From: a virus
Length of the DNA: 42,177 nucleotides
Virus record (IMG/VR): IMGVR_UViG_3300012929_000013
Direction: 5' to 3' (one strand)
A program made the translations under genes and the position numbers. The notes below the pieces were generated by a model, which ran no database searches, was not told the origin of the DNA, and saw only the letters and a program-made list of their open reading frames with translations. Positions 1-42,177 of the stretch are shown in pieces. Every line of letters starts with the position of its first letter. Within the stretch, counting starts at the first letter, position 1.

Positions 1-123
1 AGCCATGCGAGATAGGCTGCCCCGGCGTCGAGCGCCAAGGCCGGATTGAACAGCTTCTCCCAATCGACTCCCATGTCGCTGGCGGCTCCCCCGTGCATCT
101 GCATGAGGCCGCGTGCCTTGCCG
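1..123. repeat. Terminal direct repeat: bases 1-123 are identical to 42055-42177 (circular closure or terminal redundancy)
   Basis: Base-by-base comparison of the first and last lines of the window. The repeat lies inside a coding sequence. Confidence 0.95.
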
Positions 124-10692: not shown

Positions 10693-11034
10693 TCACCCCA
10701 GAATTACGACGCGGTGCGTCCGATCGACGTTTGCGTTATTGGCATGCGTCACGACAGCACTTCCCTTTTTCAATGTCGATTGCGCGACATAGAGCGGCCC
10801 GACCCGGCAATCGACATCGGCATTCGCCGTCATCGGCATGAAGGTCAACTGACTGTAGTAGCCGATGCGGCTGTCGGTGATCGTCGTCGCCGCCGCGTTC
10901 GCCGTCAGCGTGACATCGAGCGTGACGTTCATCTTGCCGCCGCGAAGACTGTTGATCGCGCGCGCCAGCTTGCGGCGGTGCTCGTCGGCATCGGGTTCGA
11001 AATCGGGGACGAGGGCGAAGGTCGGCGCGGTCAT
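10693..11034 (-). CDS. Hypothetical virion protein (113 aa)
   Basis: Track ORF with an ATGA overlap to the upstream gene. Confidence 0.7.
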   Translation of the reverse strand: MTAPTFALVPDFEPDADEHRRKLARAINSLRGGKMNVTLDVTLTANAAATTITDSRIGYYSQLTFMPMTANADVDCRVGPLYVAQSTLKKGSAVVTHANNANVDRTHRVVILG

Positions 11035-11423
11035 TGTGCCGATGCATCTTCAATTTTAGCGCCATCCCAGTTTCGACGCGCTCTTTCAAGAGCATGCTCT
11101 TTATTCATGCCCTTGATCTCGTCGAAAAACGGCTCTTGTCCAGGGATGGTAACCTTGACCGGCTGAGAGTGTGGATAATTGCTATTGTCAAATCCGACGT
11201 TTGGGCCATTTTTGCGAAACCCCATGAGCGAATTCGGGACATTCGCGTACGGCCGCAAATTACCGACACCCAGAGATGTCGCGATTGGATCGTTAGCCAT
11301 GATGTATTTTAGCCGATCAGACAGAAGCCCCATTGAGCTGGCGGTGTCCCGTGCCTTGATACTCTGAGACAAAATACCCGGTCCAGAAAGCCAATCGTTG
11401 ATTTGATCGAGAAATCCACTCAT
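11031..11423 (-). CDS. Hypothetical protein (130 aa), lower-GC patch
   Basis: Track ORF, overlap-coupled on both sides. Local GC is visibly lower than in the flanking sequence. Confidence 0.7.
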   Translation of the reverse strand: MSGFLDQINDWLSGPGILSQSIKARDTASSMGLLSDRLKYIMANDPIATSLGVGNLRPYANVPNSLMGFRKNGPNVGFDNSNYPHSQPVKVTIPGQEPFFDEIKGMNKEHALERARRNWDGAKIEDASAQ

Positions 11424-12943
11424 CTCTCACCCACCGGCACGACATCGATATCGATGCCCTGCATCTGCGTCCACGGATCGCCAGCCGCCATCTGGATGTT
11501 GTAGCGAACGAAGCGCCCGGTCACCCGCTCGCGGCAGTACCCCAGACTGTTGATGGCGACATAAGGGCCGGCGATCTGCGCATCGATCAGCCGGTCGCGC
11601 GTGATGACCGAGACGCTCGGCGACGAGCCGGTGCCCTCGACGGTCGGAAAGGCGCGGCTGACCATGACGCGCCGGCCCGGCACCGGCTGCCCCTCCGAGG
11701 TCTGCAACGTCGCCGCCATCGAGGCGCCGTTGAAGTAGTTCATCTTGTGCGCGCTATCGAAGCCGGCGAGCGCCGCCTTGCCGCCGGTCCACACTCGGCT
11801 GTCGAGCGAAAATGGCAGCGTATCGAGCGTGAAGCCGAGCGCGTCGAGGCCGTCCAGCGTGTAACCGAATGTCAGCGAGCGGAAGATGTACTCGACGTTG
11901 ACGCTGATGATGGACCAGTTGTCGACGGCCCAGTTGTAGATCAGCAGCACGTTCGGATTGCCGCCGCTATTGCCCGAGAACGGCACCGCCCAGACGATCA
12001 GGCGGTTGACCGGATCGACCGCGGCGACGATGCGGAACATCTTCGATTGATCGACATTCTCGAAGAAATAGCGGTCCACCCGGTCGATGCCGATCGGCTT
12101 CGATTGGGTACCGTCGAAGACATAGAAGCCGTCCTCGCCGAGATAGTAGACCAGGGCGCCGAGCTGCACGATCGAGCCCGGCGCCGGCGTCCCGCGTACC
12201 CCCTCGGCCGGCAGGAAGTAGAAGATGCCCGGCGGCCCGGCGTAGATGACACGCACAACCGCGTGCTCCATGAAGAGCGCGCCATCGGCGGTGCCGAGAT
12301 TGCCGACGATGCCCTGAATCCACCCGCCGTCGCCGTAGAGATTCTGGCTGTCGGACTGCACCGCCGCCGCCGAGGCGGTGCCGAGCGTCGGGAAATTGGT
12401 CGGATCGTTGAGCGCGCTCCACCAGGCGCATTGCGGCTGATTGCCGAACACCGCATCCGTCGTGTTCGCCAGCATCAGGAAGTTCTTGATGACGGCGCAG
12501 TAGCGCGCCTTCGGCGCCCCGGCCGAGAGCAGCGAGAAGTTGCTGTCGATATCGATCGCGAAGACCTGCGGCGCATCGATGTAGTTGGTGGCGATGACCT
12601 TGCCGTTCATGAAGGTGAAGCGCCAAAAGCCGTCCGCCGGCGGAGCATAGGCGCCCCCGGCGAGGCGCGAGACATCAACCCATGTCGTCGAGCCCGAGGC
12701 CAGGCGATAGAGTTTTGTCGCGTCGCCGGCGAAGTTGAAGACGTTGCCTGACGTGTCGAGTTCTGAAATGGCGCCCTGGCAGCGCGCCGTCAGCGCACCC
12801 GAGTAGACGGCGAGCGAGGGGAACGGGCCATAGCTCTTGTTGGTCACCGGAATGACGTTCAGCATGACCGCCGAGCCGTCATTGTTGTAGTCCGGCTGAT
12901 CGGGCGCGAAATCCTGAATCTTGAGGCTGTAGGTCTGCGGCAT
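11420..12943 (-). CDS. Tail tubular protein B-like (nozzle) protein (507 aa)
   Basis: Track ORF immediately downstream of the gp11-like adaptor, in T7-like order. The sequence is beta-rich and repetitive (YYLGEDGFYVFDG...). Confidence 0.55.
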   Translation of the reverse strand: MPQTYSLKIQDFAPDQPDYNNDGSAVMLNVIPVTNKSYGPFPSLAVYSGALTARCQGAISELDTSGNVFNFAGDATKLYRLASGSTTWVDVSRLAGGAYAPPADGFWRFTFMNGKVIATNYIDAPQVFAIDIDSNFSLLSAGAPKARYCAVIKNFLMLANTTDAVFGNQPQCAWWSALNDPTNFPTLGTASAAAVQSDSQNLYGDGGWIQGIVGNLGTADGALFMEHAVVRVIYAGPPGIFYFLPAEGVRGTPAPGSIVQLGALVYYLGEDGFYVFDGTQSKPIGIDRVDRYFFENVDQSKMFRIVAAVDPVNRLIVWAVPFSGNSGGNPNVLLIYNWAVDNWSIISVNVEYIFRSLTFGYTLDGLDALGFTLDTLPFSLDSRVWTGGKAALAGFDSAHKMNYFNGASMAATLQTSEGQPVPGRRVMVSRAFPTVEGTGSSPSVSVITRDRLIDAQIAGPYVAINSLGYCRERVTGRFVRYNIQMAAGDPWTQMQGIDIDVVPVGER

Positions 12944-13602
12944 CAGAACCTCGTCGCGGCGATCCGGCCGGACGAAATGCGCGCCGTCGATGAACGGGTC
13001 AGCGACACATACGCCATCTCCTCAAGCGGCGAGAAGAAATCCTTGCCGGCCGCTTCCATCGCGCCGACCATTTGCATTGCCGTGTCATCGTTCTGATAGT
13101 TGAGCTTGAGCGCCTGCTTGGCACGCGCGCGGATCATCGCCTCGCCGTCCGTCGTCCAGGAATTGGTATCCGCGTCGGCCGAGAGCGTGGTCAGCTGCTT
13201 CACATAGCTCATCAGCAGCGCATAGATGGCGTCCGGCACCGGATAGAGATAGAGCGTATTCTGGTAATAGACGAACTGCCCCGGCACGGCCTTGCCGACC
13301 GTCGTGTCACGCAATCCCAGACGCGAGTACCACGCCCAATCGCGGCGTCTGAGGCCGTAGGGATGGCCGCCATAGGTGACATCGATGGTGTCGATTTCGA
13401 GGAGATCGCTCGGCACCGCGACCGAGTTGGCCGAGGCGGCGGTCGAGAGCGTCGTTTGCGCCTCGTTGAACCAGAAGCGCTCGCGCTCATAGTGCTGAAT
13501 CGCCGAGAGGATTTCGAGCTTGATCTGCGCCGTGGTGACCGTGGCGCCGGTCAGCAGCTCGTCGGCGATGCGGTTCTGAAGATCGACGTAGGTGCCGGTC
13601 AT
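12943..13602 (-). CDS. Tail tubular protein A-like / adaptor (219 aa)
   Basis: Internal start MTGTYVDLQNRIADELL... of track ORF 12943..13965. The pattern (I..AI..YERERFWFNE...VP.D) resembles T7 gp11-type adaptors. There is an ATGA overlap with the upstream gene. Confidence 0.6.
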   Translation of the reverse strand: MTGTYVDLQNRIADELLTGATVTTAQIKLEILSAIQHYERERFWFNEAQTTLSTAASANSVAVPSDLLEIDTIDVTYGGHPYGLRRRDWAWYSRLGLRDTTVGKAVPGQFVYYQNTLYLYPVPDAIYALLMSYVKQLTTLSADADTNSWTTDGEAMIRARAKQALKLNYQNDDTAMQMVGAMEAAGKDFFSPLEEMAYVSLTRSSTARISSGRIAATRF

Positions 13603-13841
13603 GGCTTGCCATCGCAACTGCGGACATGGAAGTGCATGCCGCGGCCGATGTAGCGGCCGCATTTCGAGCAGATGCCGGGGGCGAATTCCTTCGGCGGCTC
13701 GCTGGCGCGTTCTGCCGCGCTCGGCGCGGCGACCGGCGTCACCTTCCAGGGCTGCGGCTTCGGCGGCTCGGGCAACGGGAGCGGCGTGACGGTCGCATGC
13801 TCGGCCGCGTGCAAAGCCTGCCAAATCTGCCGGCGTCTCAT
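13599..13841 (-). CDS. Small Pro-rich protein with C-terminal Cys/His cluster (80 aa)
   Basis: Track ORF, overlap-coupled at both ends. It contains CSKCGRYIGRGMHFHVRSC. Confidence 0.55.
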   Translation of the reverse strand: MRRRQIWQALHAAEHATVTPLPLPEPPKPQPWKVTPVAAPSAAERASEPPKEFAPGICSKCGRYIGRGMHFHVRSCDGKP

Positions 13842-14314
13842 GCCGCTGCCTTTCCCTTTTGCATACGAGAGAATTCAAACCACAGATGTTTTGCCCATTC
13901 GGCATCCGCCAAAGCATTATGATCGTCACCAGCCGGGCGCTGCATGGAAGGATTGCCAACGGCATCGGCCAATTGCCTCACGTCTCGACAAAACATCGGC
14001 CATCCCTCTGGAAGGTCCATCATGGTACCGTAGAGTTGGCATAGAGCCACCCAATCGTAATCCGCGTACCAAGCCCAGAATTCTGGCTCCGCTCCAACAA
14101 AGTCGCGAATAGAATCGGCGATAGCTCGGCGAGTCATCTTATATCCTGACAGGGATGGGAAAACGTGTTTCCTCACCCATTCGGATGCTAGCGACAAATC
14201 ACATTGCAAGCTTTCAGCGTAGAAAACAGCGCCATTTTCAGCAACGATACCTATCGATATCAAGTCAATCGTGTGACCATCATCGATGAATTCAGTATCA
14301 AACCAAAATTTCAT
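13838..14314 (-). CDS. 3'-5' exo(ribo)nuclease, DEDDh / Rv2179c-like (158 aa)
   Basis: Internal start MKFWFDTEFIDDGHTIDLISIGIV... of track ORF 13838..14458, with the C-terminal motif HNALADAEW. It sits in a marked low-GC patch. Confidence 0.7.
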   Translation of the reverse strand: MKFWFDTEFIDDGHTIDLISIGIVAENGAVFYAESLQCDLSLASEWVRKHVFPSLSGYKMTRRAIADSIRDFVGAEPEFWAWYADYDWVALCQLYGTMMDLPEGWPMFCRDVRQLADAVGNPSMQRPAGDDHNALADAEWAKHLWFEFSRMQKGKAAA

Positions 14315-15027
14315 GCGACACTCTCCGCTATCGGAAACCGGCGCACGCGCAGCGCCTCGTCGAGCCAGCGCGGCTGCGTCGTCTCGGCGGTGCCATTCGT
14401 GAAGTGCAGCAGCTTCGGCACCACGTCCGGCATTTGCTCGCCGACGAGGTAGTTCCACTCGACCGGCAGCGCGCCGATTTCGGCGTCATCGAGCCAGCAG
14501 AAGCGGTGCAGATAGCGGCCCGGAAGCGTGTTCACCATCTCGACGGTAAGCCGGCGGTTGCCAGGATGGTCGGCATTGATCAGCATCAGGCTCGACCAGT
14601 TCTTGCGCGGATAATCGAGTTGCATCCGGCCATCCATCTTCGATCGGAGCGTATAAACGTGGTGCTCGTGTTGCACGCACATGACCGCGTAGCGATCGTC
14701 GGCGAGGCTGAAAAGCCCGGCGATGTCGGCGAGCGCAAGCATGTCGCACTCGCCGAACATGCACCATCCGGTTCTTTGCAGGTGGGGGACCAGGAACCGG
14801 GTGATGGCAAACTCGGTACTCATCGGCGCGCCGGAAATCACGTCCCACGATTGCCCCTGCTTGAGAATCTGCTCGCGCCTGTAGAGCCCCTCGTGACGTA
14901 ATGCCTTCTGCATCAACGGCCGGATGTGCAGCGCTGCCGACGATTGCCGCTCCAGCGAGTTGCGGAAGACCTGGAAGGATAGCGGCTGCCGCGTGTCGAA
15001 GCCGATGTGAAGGTCGAGCGTCTTCAC
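14311..15027 (-). CDS. Glycosyltransferase family 8-like protein (238 aa)
   Basis: Track ORF. FAITRFLVPHL, GECDMLALADI (DxD-like) and LLHFTNGTAETTQPRW (H-x-x-G...PW-like) fit the GT8 retaining-transferase pattern. Confidence 0.6.
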   Translation of the reverse strand: MKTLDLHIGFDTRQPLSFQVFRNSLERQSSAALHIRPLMQKALRHEGLYRREQILKQGQSWDVISGAPMSTEFAITRFLVPHLQRTGWCMFGECDMLALADIAGLFSLADDRYAVMCVQHEHHVYTLRSKMDGRMQLDYPRKNWSSLMLINADHPGNRRLTVEMVNTLPGRYLHRFCWLDDAEIGALPVEWNYLVGEQMPDVVPKLLHFTNGTAETTQPRWLDEALRVRRFPIAESVA

Positions 15028-15200
15028 GGCAGCCGCCCCATCATCGCATTATGCGCGGCAACATGACGACGCGCTGCATCACGATACGGTGCCCATTCTG
15101 CCTCGCTCTCGGCCATCGTAATCCTGGCGGAATCTTCGCTTGGCTCCAACTCCACCTTCCAAATGGCAAAGGCGACCTGATCAATGATGGGATCGTTCAT
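15024..15200 (-). CDS. Hypothetical small protein (58 aa)
   Basis: Internal start MNDPIIDQVAFAIWKVELEPSEDSARITMAESEAEWAPYRDAARRHVAAHNAMMGRLP of track ORF 15024..15410. It is overlap-coupled to the GT8 gene. Confidence 0.5.
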   Translation of the reverse strand: MNDPIIDQVAFAIWKVELEPSEDSARITMAESEAEWAPYRDAARRHVAAHNAMMGRLP

Positions 15201-15205
15201 CAGTT

Positions 15206-15610
15206 TCACTGCACGCTCCGATGCAGCGACGGCTTCGGCGAGACGCCCGGCGCCGCCATGCCAGCGTGGCGCAACGCCACGATGGCGAGACCGATGATGC
15301 GCGCCGAGGGCCACTCGTCGGGCTGATCGAAGACCGTATAGCCCATGGTGCCGTGCTCCAACTCCCCGGCCTTCAGCGCGTCGCAATGGTGCCGGTAGAA
15401 GGCGGCCCAATGCACCATCTCCTCATCGCCGAGCGCCGCCGTCGCCGCGAGGTTCCACACTTGCGCCGTCCACTCCAAATCCTCGTGATCGAAGCCAATG
15501 GCGGCGCGGTCCGACCTCACCGACATGCAGAACAGGGTGAAGAGAAAGCGCTCCGGGTTGTCGTCCGTCAGCACTTGCTTATCGATCGGCACCATCGGAC
15601 GGGCGCTCAT
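15206..15610 (-). CDS. Hypothetical protein (134 aa)
   Basis: Track ORF with protein-like composition and an ATGA overlap with the upstream gene. Confidence 0.6.
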   Translation of the reverse strand: MSARPMVPIDKQVLTDDNPERFLFTLFCMSVRSDRAAIGFDHEDLEWTAQVWNLAATAALGDEEMVHWAAFYRHHCDALKAGELEHGTMGYTVFDQPDEWPSARIIGLAIVALRHAGMAAPGVSPKPSLHRSVQ

Positions 15611-16578
15611 GCGACGTTCTCCGCCTGATCATGCGACGGCCCCTCTTTAATCCTTGTAGAAGTAGCCTTATCGAACTGATCCAAGATCAACTCAGCATCG
15701 TCGTCCCTGCGCCAGACGATGCGCCGGTTCGGTGCGCTGAACGGCAGTTGCGAGCCCGGCGGGATACCCATCAGTTCCATCCATTCCGCTGTCGGGTGAA
15801 AGTGCAGTCTACCTGTCTGATCAGCCATCAGGCGCTTTTCGAAGAGGTGAAGGAAGAACAAAAACGGCCGCTTGGCGTCGAGGTAGCACAGCGAAAACGG
15901 GCCGCCCGAGGCCGAAAGGTTCATCACCGCGGCATCGTAGAGCGCGGCGCGGATGTCGAGGTCGCAGGCGGCGAGCGGATCGGGGAATTCCGCAAGCCAG
16001 ATCGCCTCGCCCATCTTCCCGGTGTCGGAGATGAAAACCGGCCAGTATCCGCGCGATTTCAAACCCAGATGGACATCTGTCCAGGTCGCTATATTTGAGT
16101 TGCGCATGACGCTATGCGTACTGCGAAGCGTAATGGTGACGAGATTTTCACCACAACCCCATAGCCGCTTAACATGCTCGCGCGCCCGCTCGCTCGCCTC
16201 GAAACGCGGTACCATGCCGGCATCCATCGCCCGCTTCGCCACCGAGATCAGGAACGATTTGTCCGGCTCACCGTTGCCGAAGGTCAGCGGATAGAAGACC
16301 TTGCTCTTGAACGCCTCCGCCTCCTCGCGCCGGCGCAGCACCGTCACCGTCGCGCCGATCATCCGGCATAGCGGCACCAGAATGTGATCGACGCGCCAGA
16401 TTTTCTCCGCCGTCGAGATCGGCTTGTGATCCTCTTCTTTGAAGCCATCGCCCGGTCCCGGCACGATGACGACATGCAGATTCTCGCCTTGCGCGAAATG
16501 CTGCGCGCCGATGAGGAAGTGCATGAAATCGAAGCTGACCGGCGAGACAGCGAGATCGTAGAAGGCGAGAAGGGTCAT
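15607..16578 (-). CDS. Hypothetical protein (323 aa), possible GT-B-like glycosyltransferase partner
   Basis: Track ORF. The segment LVTITLRSTHSVMRNSNIATWTDVHLGLKSRGYWPVFISDT resembles the second Rossmann half of GT9-type enzymes, but the match is weak. Confidence 0.3.
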   Translation of the reverse strand: MTLLAFYDLAVSPVSFDFMHFLIGAQHFAQGENLHVVIVPGPGDGFKEEDHKPISTAEKIWRVDHILVPLCRMIGATVTVLRRREEAEAFKSKVFYPLTFGNGEPDKSFLISVAKRAMDAGMVPRFEASERAREHVKRLWGCGENLVTITLRSTHSVMRNSNIATWTDVHLGLKSRGYWPVFISDTGKMGEAIWLAEFPDPLAACDLDIRAALYDAAVMNLSASGGPFSLCYLDAKRPFLFFLHLFEKRLMADQTGRLHFHPTAEWMELMGIPPGSQLPFSAPNRRIVWRRDDDAELILDQFDKATSTRIKEGPSHDQAENVA

Positions 16579-17993
16579 TCCGCTGCCTCCCGCATCGCCT
16601 CGTCCATCGATCTCAACTCGTCGACCACCTCACCTATGGCGCTCGCCCACTCGCCTCGGTCGCGTGCCGTGCCGGTCTGCCGGAAGAAACGCGAGCTGGA
16701 GCGGTACCAGAGCTTGCCCTTGTCGGCGTAGCGCCAACCGCAGCGTATCGGGACCAGCGTCCAGGTCGGTATGCCAAGCGCATTGCTGAGATGGTGGATC
16801 GACGTTCCCACCGTGATAACAAGCTGCATCGAGGCGACGAAAGATGCCGTCTTGTCGTAGTCCCGGCACTGCACCCAACCCGGATAGTGCTTGATCCTGA
16901 TGCCCGTCTTCTCCTCGAATTCGCACACCTCACGCGCTGCGTCGCCCTGATATTGGAGCGAGTAGAAATCGGCGTCGACAGCGCGGAAGACAGGCTCCAG
17001 CGCCAGCAGCGGCACCGAGCGGACGTGCTGGTTGGTCTTCGGCGTGCCGCCGGTCCAGGCGATGCCGATGCGCGGACGAAACGAATCCCCGACAACGACA
17101 CCTGGAATATCGGCCATCAGATACGGCGTCCCCGGAAAATCCTCGTCCCTGTTGCGGAAGAACTTCGGCAGCGAGGCGATCGAGATCGAGCAGTCCGGCT
17201 CGACATGATCGAGCCATTCGAGCGACGACAGCACCTTGCGCGTGCCGTGCACCGTGCAGTGCTGGAACGAGCGCCGGAACAGCGCCTCAAGCCTGGGATG
17301 GCAATCGATGATGACGTGTGCCGAACGCTCGACGAGGTCCGGGATGCAAGAGGCGAACAGGATCTCGTCGCCGATGCCCTGCTCGCCCCAGACGATCACC
17401 GTCTTGCCATGGCTGCCGTCCCATTCCGGCAGCCCGCGGTAGATGCGGCGCTGCGTCTGCTCCACGGTCGGCAGAAAGCGCGTCTCGGCTGCCGTCCAGC
17501 CCTCGCGCCAGTGTCCGAGCGAGAGATGCGCGAAGTGGCTGCTGAACAATGCGCCGTCATGGTCCGGCCGGATCGCCATCGCCTGCTTGAGGAAATGCAA
17601 TGCCCGCACCGGATCGCCGGTGTTGGTGCAGCATTTGCCGAGATTGGCGAAGAGATCGGCGCGCGAGGGCTCATGCCGCTCATGCTTCAGCGCCGCATCA
17701 TAGAGCCCTTCGGCGCGCTCGATGTCGCCCATGGTGAAATAGGCGGCACCGAGGCTGGCGAGCGCGTCGGTGAAGATGCCGCCGCCCTTCTGCTTGCGCA
17801 CCGCGAGCGCCTGGTGCAGCAGCGCCGCCGCGATGCCCTGCCGGCCGGTCTCGATCAGGCACGAGGCGAGCGACCAGAGAGCGATGTCGTCGTCGAAATT
17901 GGTATTGAGATGGCGCGACAGCAGCGCGATCGCCGGCTCCCACTCGCTGCGGTGGATATGCGCCTTGGCCTGCTCGAAAAGCTCGCTCATCAC
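16575..17993 (-). CDS. TPR-repeat + GT9-like (heptosyltransferase-fold) glycosyltransferase (472 aa)
   Basis: Track ORF. The N-terminal ~170 aa are TPR-like helices. The C-terminal part carries VIVWGEQGIGDEILFASCIPDL, IGIAWTGG, RSVPLLALEPVF...FYSLQY and LVITVGTSIHHLSNALGIPTWTLVP...WRY, the signature of TPR-GT9 fusion proteins. Confidence 0.7.
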   Translation of the reverse strand: MMSELFEQAKAHIHRSEWEPAIALLSRHLNTNFDDDIALWSLASCLIETGRQGIAAALLHQALAVRKQKGGGIFTDALASLGAAYFTMGDIERAEGLYDAALKHERHEPSRADLFANLGKCCTNTGDPVRALHFLKQAMAIRPDHDGALFSSHFAHLSLGHWREGWTAAETRFLPTVEQTQRRIYRGLPEWDGSHGKTVIVWGEQGIGDEILFASCIPDLVERSAHVIIDCHPRLEALFRRSFQHCTVHGTRKVLSSLEWLDHVEPDCSISIASLPKFFRNRDEDFPGTPYLMADIPGVVVGDSFRPRIGIAWTGGTPKTNQHVRSVPLLALEPVFRAVDADFYSLQYQGDAAREVCEFEEKTGIRIKHYPGWVQCRDYDKTASFVASMQLVITVGTSIHHLSNALGIPTWTLVPIRCGWRYADKGKLWYRSSSRFFRQTGTARDRGEWASAIGEVVDELRSMDEAMREAAE

Positions 17994-18093
17994 GCCCCCG
18001 AAAAGCGGGCTGCCTCCTCGCGGAGGGCCTGGAGAAGACAGCCCGAGTAGACCTCGCGGTGGTTACCGCCGCGAAGCCTACCACATCGGATAC

Positions 18094-18561
18094 TTAGCCC
18101 GGTAGCCCGTCCAGCCGATAGATGCAGGTCCAATTGATGGTGACCTGCGAGGTCAGCGAGCCCGAGGCCACCTTCGCCGTCAATTGGGCGAAGCGGTTCG
18201 GGTCGAGATCGGACAGCGAGATGGTGATCCCCTGGCCGCCATTGCCTGCGGTGACGACGTTGCGGCGATTGAATGTCGACTTGGCGCCGGCGGCGATGAG
18301 GGCCGAGAGATTGCCGGTGCCGCCGGCGACGATCCCGGTATTGAAGCCGAAATCGAGGCCCGCGGTGTCGGCACAGGTATGGTCCTCGAAGAAATCGACG
18401 ACCACGGCGCCGTGCGGAATTTTCGCCAGGAGCACGATATCGCCGACCGATGGCGCGATCGCCGTGGCGGGAACCACGGCGCTGCCGGAGACCGACATGT
18501 TGCCGATGTGAACAGCCTTGATGTTGCCGAGATTGTAGTTGGTCGAGGTCGAGAGCGCCAT
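18094..18561 (-). CDS. Capsid-adjacent structural protein (155 aa), possible decoration protein
   Basis: Track ORF starting 12 nt after the capsid gene stop. The assignment rests on position only. Confidence 0.35.
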   Translation of the reverse strand: MALSTSTNYNLGNIKAVHIGNMSVSGSAVVPATAIAPSVGDIVLLAKIPHGAVVVDFFEDHTCADTAGLDFGFNTGIVAGGTGNLSALIAAGAKSTFNRRNVVTAGNGGQGITISLSDLDPNRFAQLTAKVASGSLTSQVTINWTCIYRLDGLPG

Positions 18562-18573
18562 GTGCGGTCCTCC

Positions 18574-19654
18574 TTACAATGCCGGCGCGTAGGACGACAT
18601 CACGATCGTCCCGAAGTCGGCCGAGTTGAAGACCAGCTTCTTGATGCCGAAAATCGCCCCGGCCATGACGCCGAGCTGATTGCCGTAGTCGAAAAGCTCC
18701 TCGACCCATGACATGTTGTCGGCGCCTCCCCCTCGCCCGAAGCCGATCGCCGCCGCCTGGGCGCCGCAGAAGATGCCGCGGCGGTAGTTGGTCGACGAGG
18801 TCACCGAAGACGCGACGTAGGGCACACGCGCATCCTCGACGAGGACGCAATTGTTGTAGACGCCGATGAGCCCGGTGATGATCGGGTTATCGGCGATCCG
18901 GCCGCCGGTCAGCACCGCCTTCTGAATGTCGATCCACTGCCCCGTGTTGGTATTGGTGCGAAACTGGTACGTCTGATTCGGGTGGATGAAGAGGACGTAC
19001 ATCTTGTCCCCGTTCACCGTCAGTGGCCGGATCGCCGGCGTCGCCGTCTTCGCCTTGGCGACGACCCGGTCGACATCCTTCAGGTTCATGATGAAGGTCG
19101 CCGAGAGGGATGCCTCGGTGGTGTTGCCGCCGTTCTGGTCGCAGATGATCAGGTTGGTCGTAGCGGTCGGCGCGATGGCCGCCTGGTTGCCCGAGAACGC
19201 CGTCGAGATCGAGGTGCTCTGCGTCGCGTTCGCCTGTGTCTGCTGCGTCGTCGCGCCGGCGATCTGGTTGAACATCGAGCAATCGATGCGGTCGGCCCAC
19301 CAGTCTTGCAAGCCCGCTCGCGCCTCGTCGCGGACCTCGAACGGCACGCGCTGCTCCGACATCTTGCCGCTCGACCGCACGGCGTGACGAAGCTGATCGA
19401 TGAAGAGATTGTCGGAATAGGTGATGAGCGCCTCTTCCTGGCCCTCCAGCGTCGCATCGCCCTGCACGCCGGTGCCGACGAGCTGCATGCGCAGCCCGAT
19501 GGTGACGCGGTCGCCCGGACCCTTCGAGGTCTCGGTCTTCAGGGTGATCAGGCTGTCGGTCCCGGTGGTGCCCTTGAACTGCTCGTATCGGGTTTGCTTG
19601 AGCGCCTCGACGAACAGCTTCTTTGCCCAGGCCTTCACGGCGAGGGCGTTGTTG
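18574..19654 (-). CDS. Major capsid protein, N4-gp56 type, exon 2
   Basis: This is the C-terminal 360 codons of track ORF 18574..20382. ...NNALAVKAWAKKLFVEALKQTRYEQFKG...GDRVTIGLRMQLVGTGVQGDATLEGQEEAL...IDQLRHAV matches the N4-like capsid family pattern. Exon 2 begins at a codon third position, completing GT|C. Confidence 0.8.
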
Positions 19655-20397
19655 CCTTGCGTTCGCCGGGATTCGCTACTTTCCCGACCGCCCTTGCGGG
19701 CTGCTGCATGTTCCCATGCAGAGCAGACTATATCATGGTCCCGATGAAGGACCCCGCGCGCTTCCGGCCGCTTGGCCGTACTCCCCGAAGGGATAGTCGT
19801 TGCGCCTTCCCATTGCTGGGCTCGGTTCAGGATTACCCGGTCTGGGCTTCCCCTGAGTTCACGCGGTTTGCATGCGCCGTAATATGTGGGCAAACGCCGC
19901 CGTTGTGAGCCTTCCCGAAATTGCAGTTCATGCAGAGAATCTGATAGCCGGGCGGATACCCGGTGTGTCTCAGATGATTCAGCATGGCACCGCCGCAGCC
20001 TCGTCCGTTGCTGATTGTCCACCCAAGCGAACGCCGGTGATTGGCACCGTCGTTGTTCATGTGATCCAGGGTCAGAAACCTCGGTTCCGTCTCGCCACAA
20101 CAAGCGCAAATATACCCGCCATACGCCATGATCGCTTCGTGCCTGACCTTCTGCCAGTAATCGCGGCCACGCTTTCGCTCTTTCGTGGTCCACGCTGGAT
20201 TTTCGCGGTCGCGCAAATTCTTCAGACGCCAGTACTCTTTCAGCCGCTCCTTGTTCGCCGCGCGATACTCGCGCTGATATTCCAGAGTGCAGGGCTGACA
20301 GTAGCAACGAGACCCCTTGCCCATCTCGGCAACGATCCCGCATCGAGCGCACGTTTTGACCATATGCCATCTTACTGCGCATGGGGCTAATTAATCA
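19655..20397 (-). mobile_element. Group I intron (IA2/td-like core) interrupting the major capsid gene, 743 nt
   Basis: P1 hairpin ATGGGGT/TGATTAATT/AGCCCCAT has a U.G pair at the 5' splice site (U at 20398), and the intron ends in G (19655). The 3' 178 nt read P7 GACTAT, P7.1 CCCTTCGGGG, P7.2 GGCCAAGCGGCC, P3' GCGCGC, P8 GGTCC...GGACC, P7' ATAGTC, P9 CTGCATGGGAACATGCAG (GNRA loop) and CCCGCAAGGG. Removing the intron gives an in-frame 1104-nt CDS. Confidence 0.75.
19833..20363 (-). CDS. HNH homing endonuclease (176 aa), intron-encoded
   Basis: Track ORF with Cys pairs (CARCG, CYCQPC, CACCG) and the HNH core LTLDHMNNDGANHR...ILCMNCNFGKAHNG. It lies entirely inside the proposed intron. Confidence 0.8.
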   Translation of the reverse strand: MVKTCARCGIVAEMGKGSRCYCQPCTLEYQREYRAANKERLKEYWRLKNLRDRENPAWTTKERKRGRDYWQKVRHEAIMAYGGYICACCGETEPRFLTLDHMNNDGANHRRSLGWTISNGRGCGGAMLNHLRHTGYPPGYQILCMNCNFGKAHNGGVCPHITAHANRVNSGEAQTG

Positions 20398-20420
20398 ACC
20401 CCATAAGATGTGCCTGCCAT
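20398..20420 (-). CDS. Major capsid protein exon 1 (MAGTSYGV, 23 nt)
   Basis: AAAGGAG lies 9 nt upstream of the ATG at 20420. The unspliced reading gives MAGTSYGVD-stop; spliced, it continues MAGTSYGVNNALAVKAW... Confidence 0.7.
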
Positions 20421-32510: not shown

Positions 32511-33191
32511 ATGTCGACCGTCGAAATCGCCTACCGCTGGTCCACCCGCAAGCTCGCGGTCGAGCTGCCCGTCTCGCTCGACAACGCCGCGCCCGACATC
32601 CGCCTCGGCGCCGCCGTCAGGATCGCCCTCCGTCAGGGCGCCGATCTGTCTCGCGCCGTTCTGACGGGCGCCGTTCTGACGGGCGCCGATCTGACGGGCG
32701 CCGATCTGACGGGCGCCGATCTGACGGACGCCGATCTGACGGACGCCGATCTGACGGGCGCCGTTCTGTCGCGCGCCAAAGGCCTGCCGCCTATCCCGAT
32801 CGTGCCGCATATAGACGCCGCGATCCTGCGCCAGATCGAGCGCGACCCCAAGCATTTCGAAATGCATTCATGGCACGGCGACGATGAGAAATGCAATCCT
32901 GATCATTGGTGCGAGACGACGCACTGCCGCGCCGGCCTCGCCATCGCTCTCGCCGGTGAGGCGGGATGGGCACTGGAACGCGCGATTGGCCCCGCTGCGG
33001 CCGGCGCGCTGATCTATGCCGCCAGCCGGCCCGGCAAGCCGGTGCCGCAGTTCGTCACCACGAACGAGGCGGCACTGGCCGACATCCGCGCATGCGCCGC
33101 AGAGGACCCTGCTCCGCCCCAAGGGGCTTCGCAGGGCGAGCCCGGACGGCAGAAGTCCTCCGAAGCTCCCGAAGGGAGCGCAGGAGGATGA
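32511..33191 (+). CDS. Pentapeptide-repeat protein with a Cys/His/Trp-rich C-terminal domain (226 aa)
   Basis: ADLSR AVLTG AVLTG ADLTG ADLTG ADLTG ADLTD ADLTD ADLTG AVLSR is a canonical A(D/N)LXX repeat. The C-terminal part contains HFEMHSWHGDDEKCNPDHWCETTHCRAG. Confidence 0.85.
   Translation: MSTVEIAYRWSTRKLAVELPVSLDNAAPDIRLGAAVRIALRQGADLSRAVLTGAVLTGADLTGADLTGADLTDADLTDADLTGAVLSRAKGLPPIPIVPHIDAAILRQIERDPKHFEMHSWHGDDEKCNPDHWCETTHCRAGLAIALAGEAGWALERAIGPAAAGALIYAASRPGKPVPQFVTTNEAALADIRACAAEDPAPPQGASQGEPGRQKSSEAPEGSAGG
32638..32772 (+). repeat. Nine tandem 15-bp units (consensus GCGCCGATCTGACGG) inside the pentapeptide-repeat gene
   Basis: Units start at 32638, 32653, 32668, 32683, 32698, 32713, 32728, 32743 and 32758. 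The internal units differ by 0-2 nt. Confidence 0.9.
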
Positions 33192-41926: not shown

Positions 41927-42177
41927 GCATGTAGACGGTATTGGCGTAGGCGACGGCTTGATCGTAGAACCTCGCGCCCGAGCCATGCCGCATGGTTGAG
42001 AGGCCACCATTGTAGGCCGCGACCGCCGTCCTCTCGTCCTGAAGCTCGGTGATCAGCCATGCGAGATAGGCTGCCCCGGCGTCGAGCGCCAAGGCCGGAT
42101 TGAACAGCTTCTCCCAATCGACTCCCATGTCGCTGGCGGCTCCCCCGTGCATCTGCATGAGGCCGCGTGCCTTGCCG
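41871..42177 (-). CDS. Lytic transglycosylase, C-terminal part (same gene as 1..260; 42055-42177 duplicates 1-123)
   Basis: Track ORF 41871..42158: ...GLMQMHGGAASDMGVDWEKLFNPALALDAGAAYLAWLITELQDERTAVAAYNGGLSTMRHG, with the SLT AYNGG-type motif. Confidence 0.8.
   Translation of the reverse strand, partial: GKARGLMQMHGGAASDMGVDWEKLFNPALALDAGAAYLAWLITELQDERTAVAAYNGGLSTMRHGSGARFYDQAVAYANTVYMLIREAPPAVSLGESEPPS

Follow-up and report, generated by a model that had tools for sequence, protein, structure and literature searches.

Phage-encoded glycosylation of capsid and tail-tube proteins has been documented for mycobacteriophages (Freeman et al., 2023, as cited in PMC12619734). In the literature that could be searched here, glycosylation of phage virions is documented only for phages of Actinobacteria, mainly mycobacteriophages, and it has been suggested for a few others. 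Here, we describe a cassette of putative glycosyltransferase genes, a candidate system for the O-glycosylation of a virion protein, in the podovirus genome of IMG/VR record IMGVR_UViG_3300012929_000013 (42,177 nucleotides, nt; this whole stretch of DNA is called the window below). The cassette stands between the capsid gene and the tail genes, and its first enzyme, p1, joins tetratricopeptide repeats (TPR) to a domain that resembles glycosyltransferase (GT) family 9, GT9. The literature searched contained no report of a TPR-transferase cassette among the structural genes of a phage that infects Gram-negative bacteria.

TibC and AAH are protein O-heptosyltransferases with the GT9 fold; they O-glycosylate Ser residues of surface proteins in the cytoplasm with ADP-heptose. 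FlmG is a flagellin O-glycosyltransferase of Caulobacter crescentus and Brevundimonas. Its TPR domain recognises flagellin as the acceptor, whereas its GT-B domain determines the donor and has no activity in vivo by itself (PMC7591256; bioRxiv 10.1101/2022.03.25.485807).

Putative glycosyltransferases of the locus

Seven minus-strand open reading frames (ORFs), p1 to p7, occupy positions 13599-17993 of the window. The initial annotation of this DNA had described them as seven co-oriented genes coupled by overlaps. This is correct for p1/p2, p2/p3, p4/p5, p5/p6, and p6/p7, and also for p7 and the adaptor gene that follows, where stop and start codons overlap as ATGA or GTGA; p3 and p4, however, are separated by a spacer of 5 nt. 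The genes on which the argument rests are the following.

18094..18561, minus strand: p155, 155 amino acids (aa), rich in Ser, Thr, Gly, and Ala, directly after the capsid gene
16575..17993, minus strand: p1, 472 aa, TPR domain (residues ~4-173) and GT9-like GT-B domain (residues ~198-471), from Pfam TPR, AlphaFold, and Foldseek
15607..16578, minus strand: p2, 323 aa, stand-alone GT9-like GT-B protein, from AlphaFold (predicted local distance difference test, pLDDT, 91) and Foldseek
14311..15027, minus strand: p5, 238 aa, divergent GT8-type protein (GT-A, retaining), phrog_28018 at E 1e-44

The TPR repeats of p1 lie in its N-terminal third (Pfam E 4e-11). The AlphaFold model, built with 48 homologues (pLDDT 94, predicted template modelling score 0.90), has ten TPR-type helices and then two Rossmann-like halves that make up a GT-B fold, with strand-helix units alternating through residues 198-471. 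The top Foldseek matches in the PDB were SPY (SPINDLY), XcOGT (the OGT of Xanthomonas), and human OGT, at E 1e-11 to 1e-9; the template modelling (TM) scores of p1 with OGT and SPY were 0.3-0.43, which denotes an architecture in common and not a close structural identity. Viral proteins annotated as GT9 in BFVD gave target-normalised TM-scores of 0.71-0.77, and viral "Aah/TibC" proteins were among the matches. Two motifs of p1, an invariant GxQGxGDE after the first strand and VITVxTxxHHLxxAxGxP in the C-terminal half, correspond to GD and SVDTGxSHLxAAL of WaaC. Where WaaC has the Asp of its SVDTG motif, p1 and its close relatives have Gly, Cys, or Asn, and therefore the donor of p1 may differ from ADP-heptose.

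The assignment to GT9 was also sought with profiles. Comparison of the p1 profile with WaaC by hhalign aligned the SVDTGxSHL motif at E 0.004, with a probability of only 9%. In all, the hhalign comparisons of profiles against single WaaC, WaaF, and WaaJ sequences of E. coli aligned the expected motifs at probabilities of 3%-18%, which is consistent with the relationship and is not proof of it. The search of Pfam GT9 with p1 gave no match at E < 0.1, and the NCBIfam heptosyltransferase I model matched at E 0.057. PF01075 (GT9) was matched weakly by seven of 18 p1 homologues (best E 0.013), and more distant relatives exceed its cut-off of 22 bits (23.3, 23.7, and 29.2 bits). No match of p1 to PF13844 (GT41) was found, and the resemblance to OGT and SPY is architectural only. 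Single-sequence searches of the PDB with p1 and p5 returned TPR proteins or nothing, and no transferase; profile searches of the PDB with the catalytic domain of p1 and with p2 gave only noise.

For p5, the family relationship is seen in its homologues: PF01501 (GT8) was matched by 18 of the 46 (best E 2.6e-6) and not by p5 itself. The only PDB profile matches of p5 were GT8 enzymes (GlyE and glycogenin), weakly (E 0.2-1.4), at the DxD motif. The family consensus is F-x-D-C-D-M-L, and in the window the DxD motif reads E93-C94-D95; D95 and H208, the latter in an H-x-T-x-G motif, are invariant. Both motifs align with those of WaaJ in hhalign. The catalytic motifs are strongly conserved across 49 homologues of p1 and 46 homologues of p5.

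The initial annotation had given p2 a GT-B-like half. The GT-B assignment stands, and the model shows a complete GT-B fold: ranks 1-8 of the Foldseek PDB search were WaaC, the GT9 protein 3tov, and WaaF (E 2e-6 to 1e-4, TM-scores up to 0.54), and TibC was at rank 11. No match of p2 was obtained in Pfam, NCBIfam, or PHROG or by PDB sequence search; p2 together with 36 homologues did not match PF01075, and hhalign against WaaF gave a probability of 3%. Homologues of p2 number 38 in a large protein database, and two other loci of the 82 surveyed (below) encode one.

No membrane segment was predicted in p1, p2, or p5, and the maximum 19-residue hydropathy of p1 (1.32) is that of a soluble protein. 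From its modelled architecture, we propose that p1 is an initiating protein O-glycosyltransferase whose TPR domain would be the acceptor-binding module. The second conserved enzyme of the cassette is p5, a putative chain extender. The TPR and GT9-like transferase and the GT8-like transferase of the initial annotation correspond to p1 and p5.

The p1 family is large (23,586 cluster representatives at E <= 1e-30), and little characterisation of it was found. Many p1 relatives are giant proteins of 1,000-3,100 aa with up to 15 matched stretches of the TPR-GT module.

Distribution of the cassette among phages

The search of IMG/VR found 470 stretches that encode p1 relatives, of which 80 loci were fetched; a sample seeded with p1 is biased toward loci that carry it. 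The window proteins were mapped onto 82 loci found through p1. The order capsid, p155, p1, ..., p5, (p7), adaptor, nozzle recurs in most of them, and p5 accompanies p1 in most of the surveyed phage loci and also in bacterial arrays. A methyltransferase of ~173 aa that uses S-adenosylmethionine (SAM) comes after p1 in 40 of the 52 loci in which the whole interval is visible. This enzyme is absent from the window in all six frames, and p2, p3, and p4 stand in its place.

By this comparison, the conserved core is p1 and p5, usually with the methyltransferase, and p2 to p4 are recent accessories; p2, as modelled, is an accessory enzyme in the slot that holds the SAM methyltransferase in most relatives. 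The seven genes had been taken as one functional island in the initial annotation, and this view was not upheld: p2 to p4 occur only in the closest relatives, p6 is seldom present and rides along as a passenger, and p7 is part of the backbone. Nor was the picture of a one-off insertion supported; the core cassette is present in hundreds of metagenomic phage contigs.

Other cassettes contain FkbM and Methyltransf_11 methyltransferases, a GT41 gene (L002), a GT1-like gene, and a radical-SAM/SPASM protein. The cassettes of some relatives contain a protein with an ART-PolyVal ADP-ribosyltransferase domain and a radical-SAM/SPASM enzyme (L011:10556-11575, L072:11799-12755, and others), which hints that the slot also gathers other protein-modifying enzymes. 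The metagenomic genome MW202512 encodes a TPR transferase, an FkbM methyltransferase, and a "galT-like" GT8.

Given the bias of the p1-seeded sample, a second survey was seeded with a capsid alignment; the nozzle protein as a single query had given two loci. Where the downstream region was visible, ~36 loci had the cassette (the adaptor was in view in 25 of them, and the other 11 were cut off after p1) and ~30 lacked it; in the latter, the distance from capsid to adaptor is only 0.4-1.1 kb. The two states are intermingled on the capsid tree, where parsimony requires at least 11 changes. A survey for variable presence had been suggested at the outset, and it shows the unit p155-p1-(methyltransferase)-p5 in roughly half of the capsid relatives, interspersed with relatives of the other type.

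Among cultured phages, the capsid protein is closest to those of Rhizobium phage RHph_Y1_10, Microcystis phage Mae-JY35, and Paracoccus phage KLEP18-1 (41%-46% identity). No cassette-bearing cultured phage was present in the phage collection. One locus (L088) is a prophage or integrated copy in Reyranella sp. CPCC 100927 (NZ_VOHA01000004.1, positions 366,735-388,153 of a 525-kb scaffold); it has a capsid gene, a TPR transferase gene, a GT8 gene, and adaptor and nozzle genes, and its capsid-adaptor interval is unusually long (9.5 kb). The p155 profile described below did not recognise the small post-capsid protein of L088. As Reyranella is a cultured alphaproteobacterium, this prophage offers a possible host and an experimental handle.

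The p155 protein as candidate acceptor

The p155 protein has a nearly invariant N-terminal M-A-T-x-T-S-T motif and a nearly invariant T137; no Pfam match and no significant PDB match was found for it. From its position, we propose that it is a capsid-associated, decoration-like protein, which may be present in the virion. A profile of p155 was built from 26 homologues (A5). A protein of this type follows the capsid gene in 65 of 68 cassette-bearing lineages versus five of the 34 lineages scored as cassette-less, so that p155 and the transferases are concordant in 94 of 102 lineages (Fisher p 5e-17, without a correction for phylogeny). Three of the five discordant cassette-less lineages have a weaker p1 match and become cassette-bearing under a looser threshold.

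In cassette-less phages, the small protein is another one, of 125-140 aa, whose relationship to p155 is remote at best (hhalign probability 27%), and the small post-capsid proteins of RHph_Y1_10 and KLEP18-1 show no significant similarity to p155. A small intermediate group, which includes L167, L168, and L201, is clearly p155-like (hhalign probability 97%). These three loci have no transferase beside the p155-like gene, and they carry instead a TPR-GT9 gene after the nozzle gene, which matches PF01075 at 23-24 bits and has the canonical SVDT motif of GT9. The coordinates of this relocated gene are as follows.

L167, ~10800-12446: TPR-GT gene after the nozzle gene
L201, 4659-6290: TPR-GT gene after the nozzle gene

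Because L167, L168, and L201 keep both genes, the association of p155 with the transferase outlives the loss of adjacency in two lineages. By these comparisons, p155 belongs to the cassette and travels with the transferases, and of the proteins considered it is the likeliest acceptor or partner of the enzymes.

The initial annotation had named another acceptor, a Ser/Thr/Gln-rich stretch of the capsid protein, TTQQTQANATQSTS. This stretch is an insertion of 11 residues that the window has in common only with its four closest relatives, and it is missing from most transferase-bearing relatives; as a lineage-specific insertion that does not correlate with the transferases, it was discarded as an acceptor.

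Between p155 and p1 lies a gap rich in hairpins.

17994..18093, minus strand: intergenic region of 100 nt before p1, with two GC-rich hairpins, the second followed by CUUUUC

The gap folds at -62.3 kcal/mol (z -2.56) and was not called by a simple terminator scan. Among relatives, 71 of 76 distinct p155-p1 gaps are at least 33 nt long, and most of these fold strongly, with hairpins typically of -20 to -37 kcal/mol over 40-60 nt. The hairpin-rich gap noticed in the initial annotation is thus real and conserved. That it would be the sole sizeable gap of the late operon is incorrect: gaps of ~158 nt (portal/scaffold), ~187 nt (scaffold/capsid exon 1), and ~256 nt (terminase/portal) also occur. 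On account of its folding and conservation, the region is probably a transcription attenuator or an mRNA 3' stabiliser between the unit of capsid and p155 and the genes for the enzymes and tail. Since p155 is upstream of the recurrent hairpin, it would share the expression unit of the capsid, and the enzymes would be in the read-through part.

Bacterial homologues of p1

A scan of one genome per GTDB species revealed >500 stretches that encode p1 relatives, and the best 80, mostly chromosomal, were used. Typically, several TPR-GT9-like paralogues stand in tandem at the bacterial loci, accompanied by a p5-like GT8 and FkbM methyltransferases. Of the 73 non-phage loci, 14 lie <=7 kb from FliD, FliS, or flagellin genes, and nine are beside type IV pilin genes; these nine are all from Proteobacteria, mostly Betaproteobacteria. 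Five of the flagellins were confirmed by Pfam. In two planctomycete loci, the flagellin gene is immediately upstream of the TPR-GT9 gene. The flagellins of L114 and L115, confirmed by Pfam, adjoin a TPR protein that matches GT9 at 29.2 bits. Neither the window nor any phage locus contains a flagellin-like gene. The ten commonest neighbour families that were checked at the bacterial loci, a limited sampling, included no lipopolysaccharide (LPS) genes, and within this sampling the homologues of p1 and p5 were not seen next to genes for DNA modification either.

Arrays of up to six TPR-GT9-like paralogues were seen in Betaproteobacteria, Rhodospirillales, Planctomycetes, and Acidobacteria (L090-L165; e.g., L093, L094, L111, L113, and L146); L114, L115, and L138 are further examples of bacterial TPR-GT9 arrays. 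The pilin-adjacent arrays are accompanied by genes for a PilB-like ATPase and a GAF-cyclase. As pilin glycosylation is normally periplasmic, one would not expect cytoplasmic transferases next to the genes of pilins.

The flagellin and pilin neighbourhoods, taken with the known activity of FlmG, argue by analogy that p1-type enzymes may glycosylate abundant, polymerising, surface-exposed proteins in the cytoplasm.

Proposed function of the cassette

Taken together, these results lead us to view the cassette, with modest confidence, as a late-expressed cytoplasmic protein O-glycosylation system that probably decorates a virion surface protein before or during capsid assembly. In favor of this function are the TPR and GT-B architecture of p1, the coupling of the genes into the structural operon, the co-occurrence with p155, the flagellin- and pilin-linked homologues, and the lack of membrane segments; the methyltransferase, GT41, and GT1-like genes in the cassettes of relatives fit the tailoring of a glycan. 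The virion glycosylation suggested in the initial annotation remains, after testing, the best-supported reading of the locus on computational grounds, and what did not survive are its T7-like label, the capsid stretch as acceptor, and the view of the block as one island.

The proposed mechanism would be as follows. The part of the transcript that precedes the hairpin attenuator would give large amounts of capsid protein and p155, and read-through would yield lower amounts of the enzymes and the tail proteins. The TPR superhelix of p1 would bind the acceptor, most likely p155 and alternatively the major capsid protein, and its GT9-like domain would add the first sugar to Ser or Thr from the nucleotide-sugar pool of the host. 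The glycan would then be extended by p5, as a GT8-type, retaining hexosyltransferase, and in this phage also by p2, in whose slot the relatives would methylate it with the SAM methyltransferase. No sugar-biosynthesis genes were found in the phage ORFs examined. GT9 enzymes usually use ADP-heptose and GT8 enzymes UDP-hexoses; on this analogy, we speculate that the glycan might resemble a heptose-heptose-hexose unit. Shielding, stability, adhesion, and evasion of host sensors are candidate benefits.

More broadly, the cassette can be seen as a mobile "glycoprotein kit" of podoviruses of Proteobacteria, which would consist of a p155-type protein, an FlmG-like TPR-GT9 enzyme, a GT8 extender, and a methyltransferase or further transferases, held in a fixed slot between capsid and adaptor in roughly half of the phage lineage and tied by evolution to the flagellin and pilin glycosylation islands of bacteria. 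We offer this wider picture tentatively and rate it just short of probable.

Several observations weigh against virion glycosylation. The support for it is wholly computational, and p1, p2, and p5 themselves fall below the Pfam thresholds for GT9 and GT8; the first Asp of the DxD motif of p5 is Glu in this phage. The p155 protein has no significant match to known decoration proteins (the best, a "cement protein" in the PDB, is at E = 3). As p155 and p1 are adjacent, their co-occurrence could stem from recombination of the block and not from function; the loci with a relocated transferase represent only two lineages, and four lineages have a p155-like protein and no transferase within the 7-9 kb available. 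The capsid tree, built by neighbour joining from 102 distinct sequences, has no support values, and RHph_Y1_10 and KLEP18-1, the cultured phages closest to this one, both lack the cassette. Finally, the bacterial contexts fit equally well a phage enzyme that acts on host flagellin or pilin.

This last explanation, that the enzymes glycosylate host flagellin or type IV pilin and thereby alter motility or block the adsorption of competing phages (flagellotropic or specific for pili) or of the phage's own progeny to infected cells and debris, seems unlikely to us, although it draws on the same homologues as virion glycosylation: the p1 and p5 relatives beside flagellin, FliD, or FliS (14 loci) and pilin (nine loci), and the specificity of FlmG-type enzymes for flagellin through the TPR domain. 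The Reyranella prophage and an att site annotated in RHph_Y1_10 also make lysogenic conversion conceivable. The position of the genes tells against it, as they are translationally coupled in a late structural operon and do not form an independent moron near an attachment site, and flagellin or pilin made so late would hardly be assembled before lysis. It also leaves aside that the TPR transferase co-varies with p155 even when relocated, in phage loci that have no flagellin-like gene. A little less likely again is the modification of the inner or outer core of host LPS, by which a receptor would be destroyed or masked late in infection or in lysogens. GT9 heptosyltransferases together with GT8 enzymes of the WaaJ/WaaO type are the classic combination for assembly of the LPS core, the best structural matches of p2 are WaaC and WaaF, p5 aligns with WaaJ at both catalytic motifs, and several p5 homologues are named "lipopolysaccharide biosynthesis glycosyltransferase" by the JGI (Joint Genome Institute). 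However, protein acceptors are indicated by the fusion of p1 to TPR and by the homologues that adjoin flagellin and pilin genes, LPS genes are missing from the commonest bacterial neighbour families within the limited sampling noted above, genes for methyltransferases, GT41, and radical-SAM enzymes are unlike core-assembly operons, and the co-variation with p155 would be unexplained.

The remaining explanations, which we consider very unlikely, are a different target (the phage DNA, another cytoplasmic protein of phage or host, or a small molecule) or inactive remnants kept by linkage. Phage GT-B enzymes that glucosylate DNA are well known in the account of PMC12619734, and p1, p2, and p5 are too divergent for the curated family thresholds. 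On the other hand, no hydroxymethylase or other base-hypermodification enzyme was found among the ten large non-structural ORFs scanned (which include a PrimPol-helicase, a PD-(D/E)XK nuclease, and a pentapeptide-repeat protein), and a TPR acceptor module with flagellin-linked homologues does not fit a DNA substrate. The strong conservation of the catalytic-site motifs described above speaks against inactive remnants. On this balance, glycosylation of a virion protein, with p155 as its candidate acceptor, is the explanation that we prefer.

Genome context and neighbouring genes

The two ends of the contig of 42,177 nt share an exact direct repeat of 123 bp (window 1-123 and 42055-42177). The phage genome is therefore complete, and it is terminally redundant or was assembled as a circle. 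Comparison of the DNA with GenBank phages gave two short matches only, and therefore it has no close cultured relative. The late genes are on the minus strand in the order terminase, portal, scaffold, major capsid protein, p155, the seven genes, adaptor, nozzle, and tail genes, of which the last encodes a fibre with an S74 chaperone domain. By Pfam, the portal is PF16510 (P22_portal), the capsid PF13252 (Phage_capsid_3, N4 gp56 type), and the adaptor PF24175 (SU10_adaptor). The initial annotation had read the structural genes as following T7 order. A generic podovirus order does hold; the structural proteins, as these families show, are not homologues of those of T7. With these families and with a PrimPol-helicase as replication gene, a T7-like (Autographiviridae-type) structural module was ruled out. 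The early/middle region encodes a pentapeptide-repeat protein of 226 aa (window 32511-33191, plus strand; Pfam E 3e-16). Pentapeptide-repeat proteins can mimic DNA.

The other genes of the block and the two that follow it are listed below.

15206..15610, minus strand: p3, 134 aa, homologues only in L001, L002, and L004
15024..15200, minus strand: p4, 58 aa, start taken as the ATG at 15200, 5 nt past the p3 stop codon
13838..14314, minus strand: p6, DEDDh 3'-5' exonuclease of the Rv2179c/RNase AS family, PF16473; phrog_2259 at E 2.5e-44
13599..13841, minus strand: p7, 80 aa, with a C-terminal CxxC...H.H...C, precedes the adaptor
12943..13602, minus strand: head-to-tail adaptor of SU10 type, PF24175 at E 2e-16; its ATG overlaps the p7 stop codon
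11420..12943, minus strand: nozzle or tail-tube protein, 507 aa, phrog_3287 virion structural protein at E 3e-72, conserved place after the adaptor

No family match was found for p3, p4, or p7 in Pfam, NCBIfam, or PHROG, and for p3 and p4 this agrees with their initial description as unknown proteins. The exoribonuclease of the DEDDh type that had been recognized in the block is p6, and the searches bear this out: PF16473 was matched at 47.7 bits (cut-off 27), the NCBIfam model RNase_AS at E 6e-43 and 146.9 bits, below its equivalog cut-off of 200, so that p6 is a family member and not an equivalog, and the sequence has D-x-E and H-x4-D motifs. A p6 homologue occurs in one of the 82 related loci; p6 is a rare passenger, outside the conserved cassette and its mechanism, and may have an independent accessory function, for example, in RNA turnover or the degradation of a nucleotide signal. 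Several relatives have a p7 homologue upstream of the adaptor gene, as does RHph_Y1_10, a phage that lacks the transferases, and p7 is therefore a backbone gene.

The gene for the major capsid protein is split after nucleotide 23 by a group I intron, as the sequence features below indicate.

20398..20420, minus strand: major capsid protein exon 1, 23 nt, MAGTSYG and the first two bases of a Val codon; AAGGAG ribosome-binding site upstream
19655..20397, minus strand: group I intron, 743 nt, in the capsid gene, Rfam RF00028, with an HNH homing-endonuclease ORF inside
19833-20363: HNH homing-endonuclease ORF in the capsid intron
18574..19654, minus strand: major capsid protein exon 2, PF13252 at E 5e-67

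Rfam RF00028 was matched at 19704-19947 with 54.9 bits (gathering score 50). The P1 helix pairs AUGGGGU with GCCCCAU and has a U.G pair at the 5' splice site, and the terminal base of the intron is G. Joining of the exons gives MAGTSYGV|NNALAVKAW, which is the uninterrupted capsid N-terminus of the relative L004. A naive reading of the region yields an ORF of 602 aa, which was rejected as an artefact of the intron. In L011, L013, L059, L060, L066, and L073, an HNH gene divides the coding sequence of the capsid protein at positions unlike that of the window, which suggests that introns (or inteins) have invaded this capsid gene family repeatedly and independently.

Significance

If the proposed function is true, virion glycosylation extends to podoviruses of Gram-negative bacteria, and virion O-glycosylation would be common in environmental viromes, given the 470 IMG/VR stretches and the presence of the cassette in about half of the capsid relatives. 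It would also connect virion glycosylation with the TPR-GT9-like family, which occurs next to flagellin and pilin genes and is poorly understood. The acceptor and its enzymes would form a compact module for cytoplasmic protein O-glycosylation, useful for glyco-engineering, and a glycan coat would affect how phage surfaces are modelled for adsorption, stability, recognition by immune and defence systems, and therapy. What is new here is that the enzymes, the probable acceptor, and the host group differ from those known for virion glycosylation, in a system that is widespread and, as yet, hypothetical.

Comparison with known systems

The mycobacteriophage system and the one proposed here both have phage-encoded glycosyltransferases for structural proteins and a glycan coat, shown in the former and proposed in the latter. 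The mycobacteriophage case, in the account of papers that cite Freeman et al. (2023), concerns siphoviruses of Actinobacteria, and experiments placed the glycans at the C-termini of capsid and tail-tube subunits. Here, by contrast, the phage is a podovirus with hosts that are presumably Proteobacteria, the enzymes are a TPR-GT9-like transferase and a GT8, the likely acceptor is a separate small protein, and the system is known from genes alone.

The closest likeness in architecture is to FlmG, which p1 resembles in its N-terminal TPR and C-terminal GT-B domains, in being soluble, and in the flagellin, FliD, and FliS genes that adjoin its bacterial homologues. With 472 aa and ~170 TPR residues, p1 is smaller than FlmG (CCNA_01524; 596 aa, ~313), and the two are likened here by architecture; a genome scan with p1 peptide patterns returned no Caulobacter locus. 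FlmG transfers pseudaminic or legionaminic acid. Unlike FlmG, p1 is encoded by a phage, and the structural operon in which its gene lies has no flagellin gene close by.

The structural matches of p2 include TibC, and viral "Aah/TibC" proteins are among those of p1 in BFVD. TibC and AAH differ in that they have no TPR, form iron-containing dodecamers, and act on autotransporter passenger domains, and their sequence similarity to p1 and p2 is undetectable. With OGT and SPINDLY (GT41), the TPR-containing enzymes of eukaryotes and bacteria that attach O-GlcNAc or O-fucose to proteins, p1 has in common a TPR superhelix that feeds a GT-B active site, and a true GT41 gene is present in the cassette of L002; unlike GT41 enzymes, p1 carries GT9-type motifs in its catalytic domain.

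At the level of gene content, the cassette is most like the flagellin glycosylation islands, in which transferases and methyltransferases stand between fliC and the genes fliD and fliS. Both contain a TPR transferase, a GT8-like enzyme, and FkbM or class I methyltransferases. In both, the enzymes adjoin the gene of an abundant, polymerising, surface-exposed protein, which in the bacterial islands is flagellin and in these phages is the capsid protein with p155.

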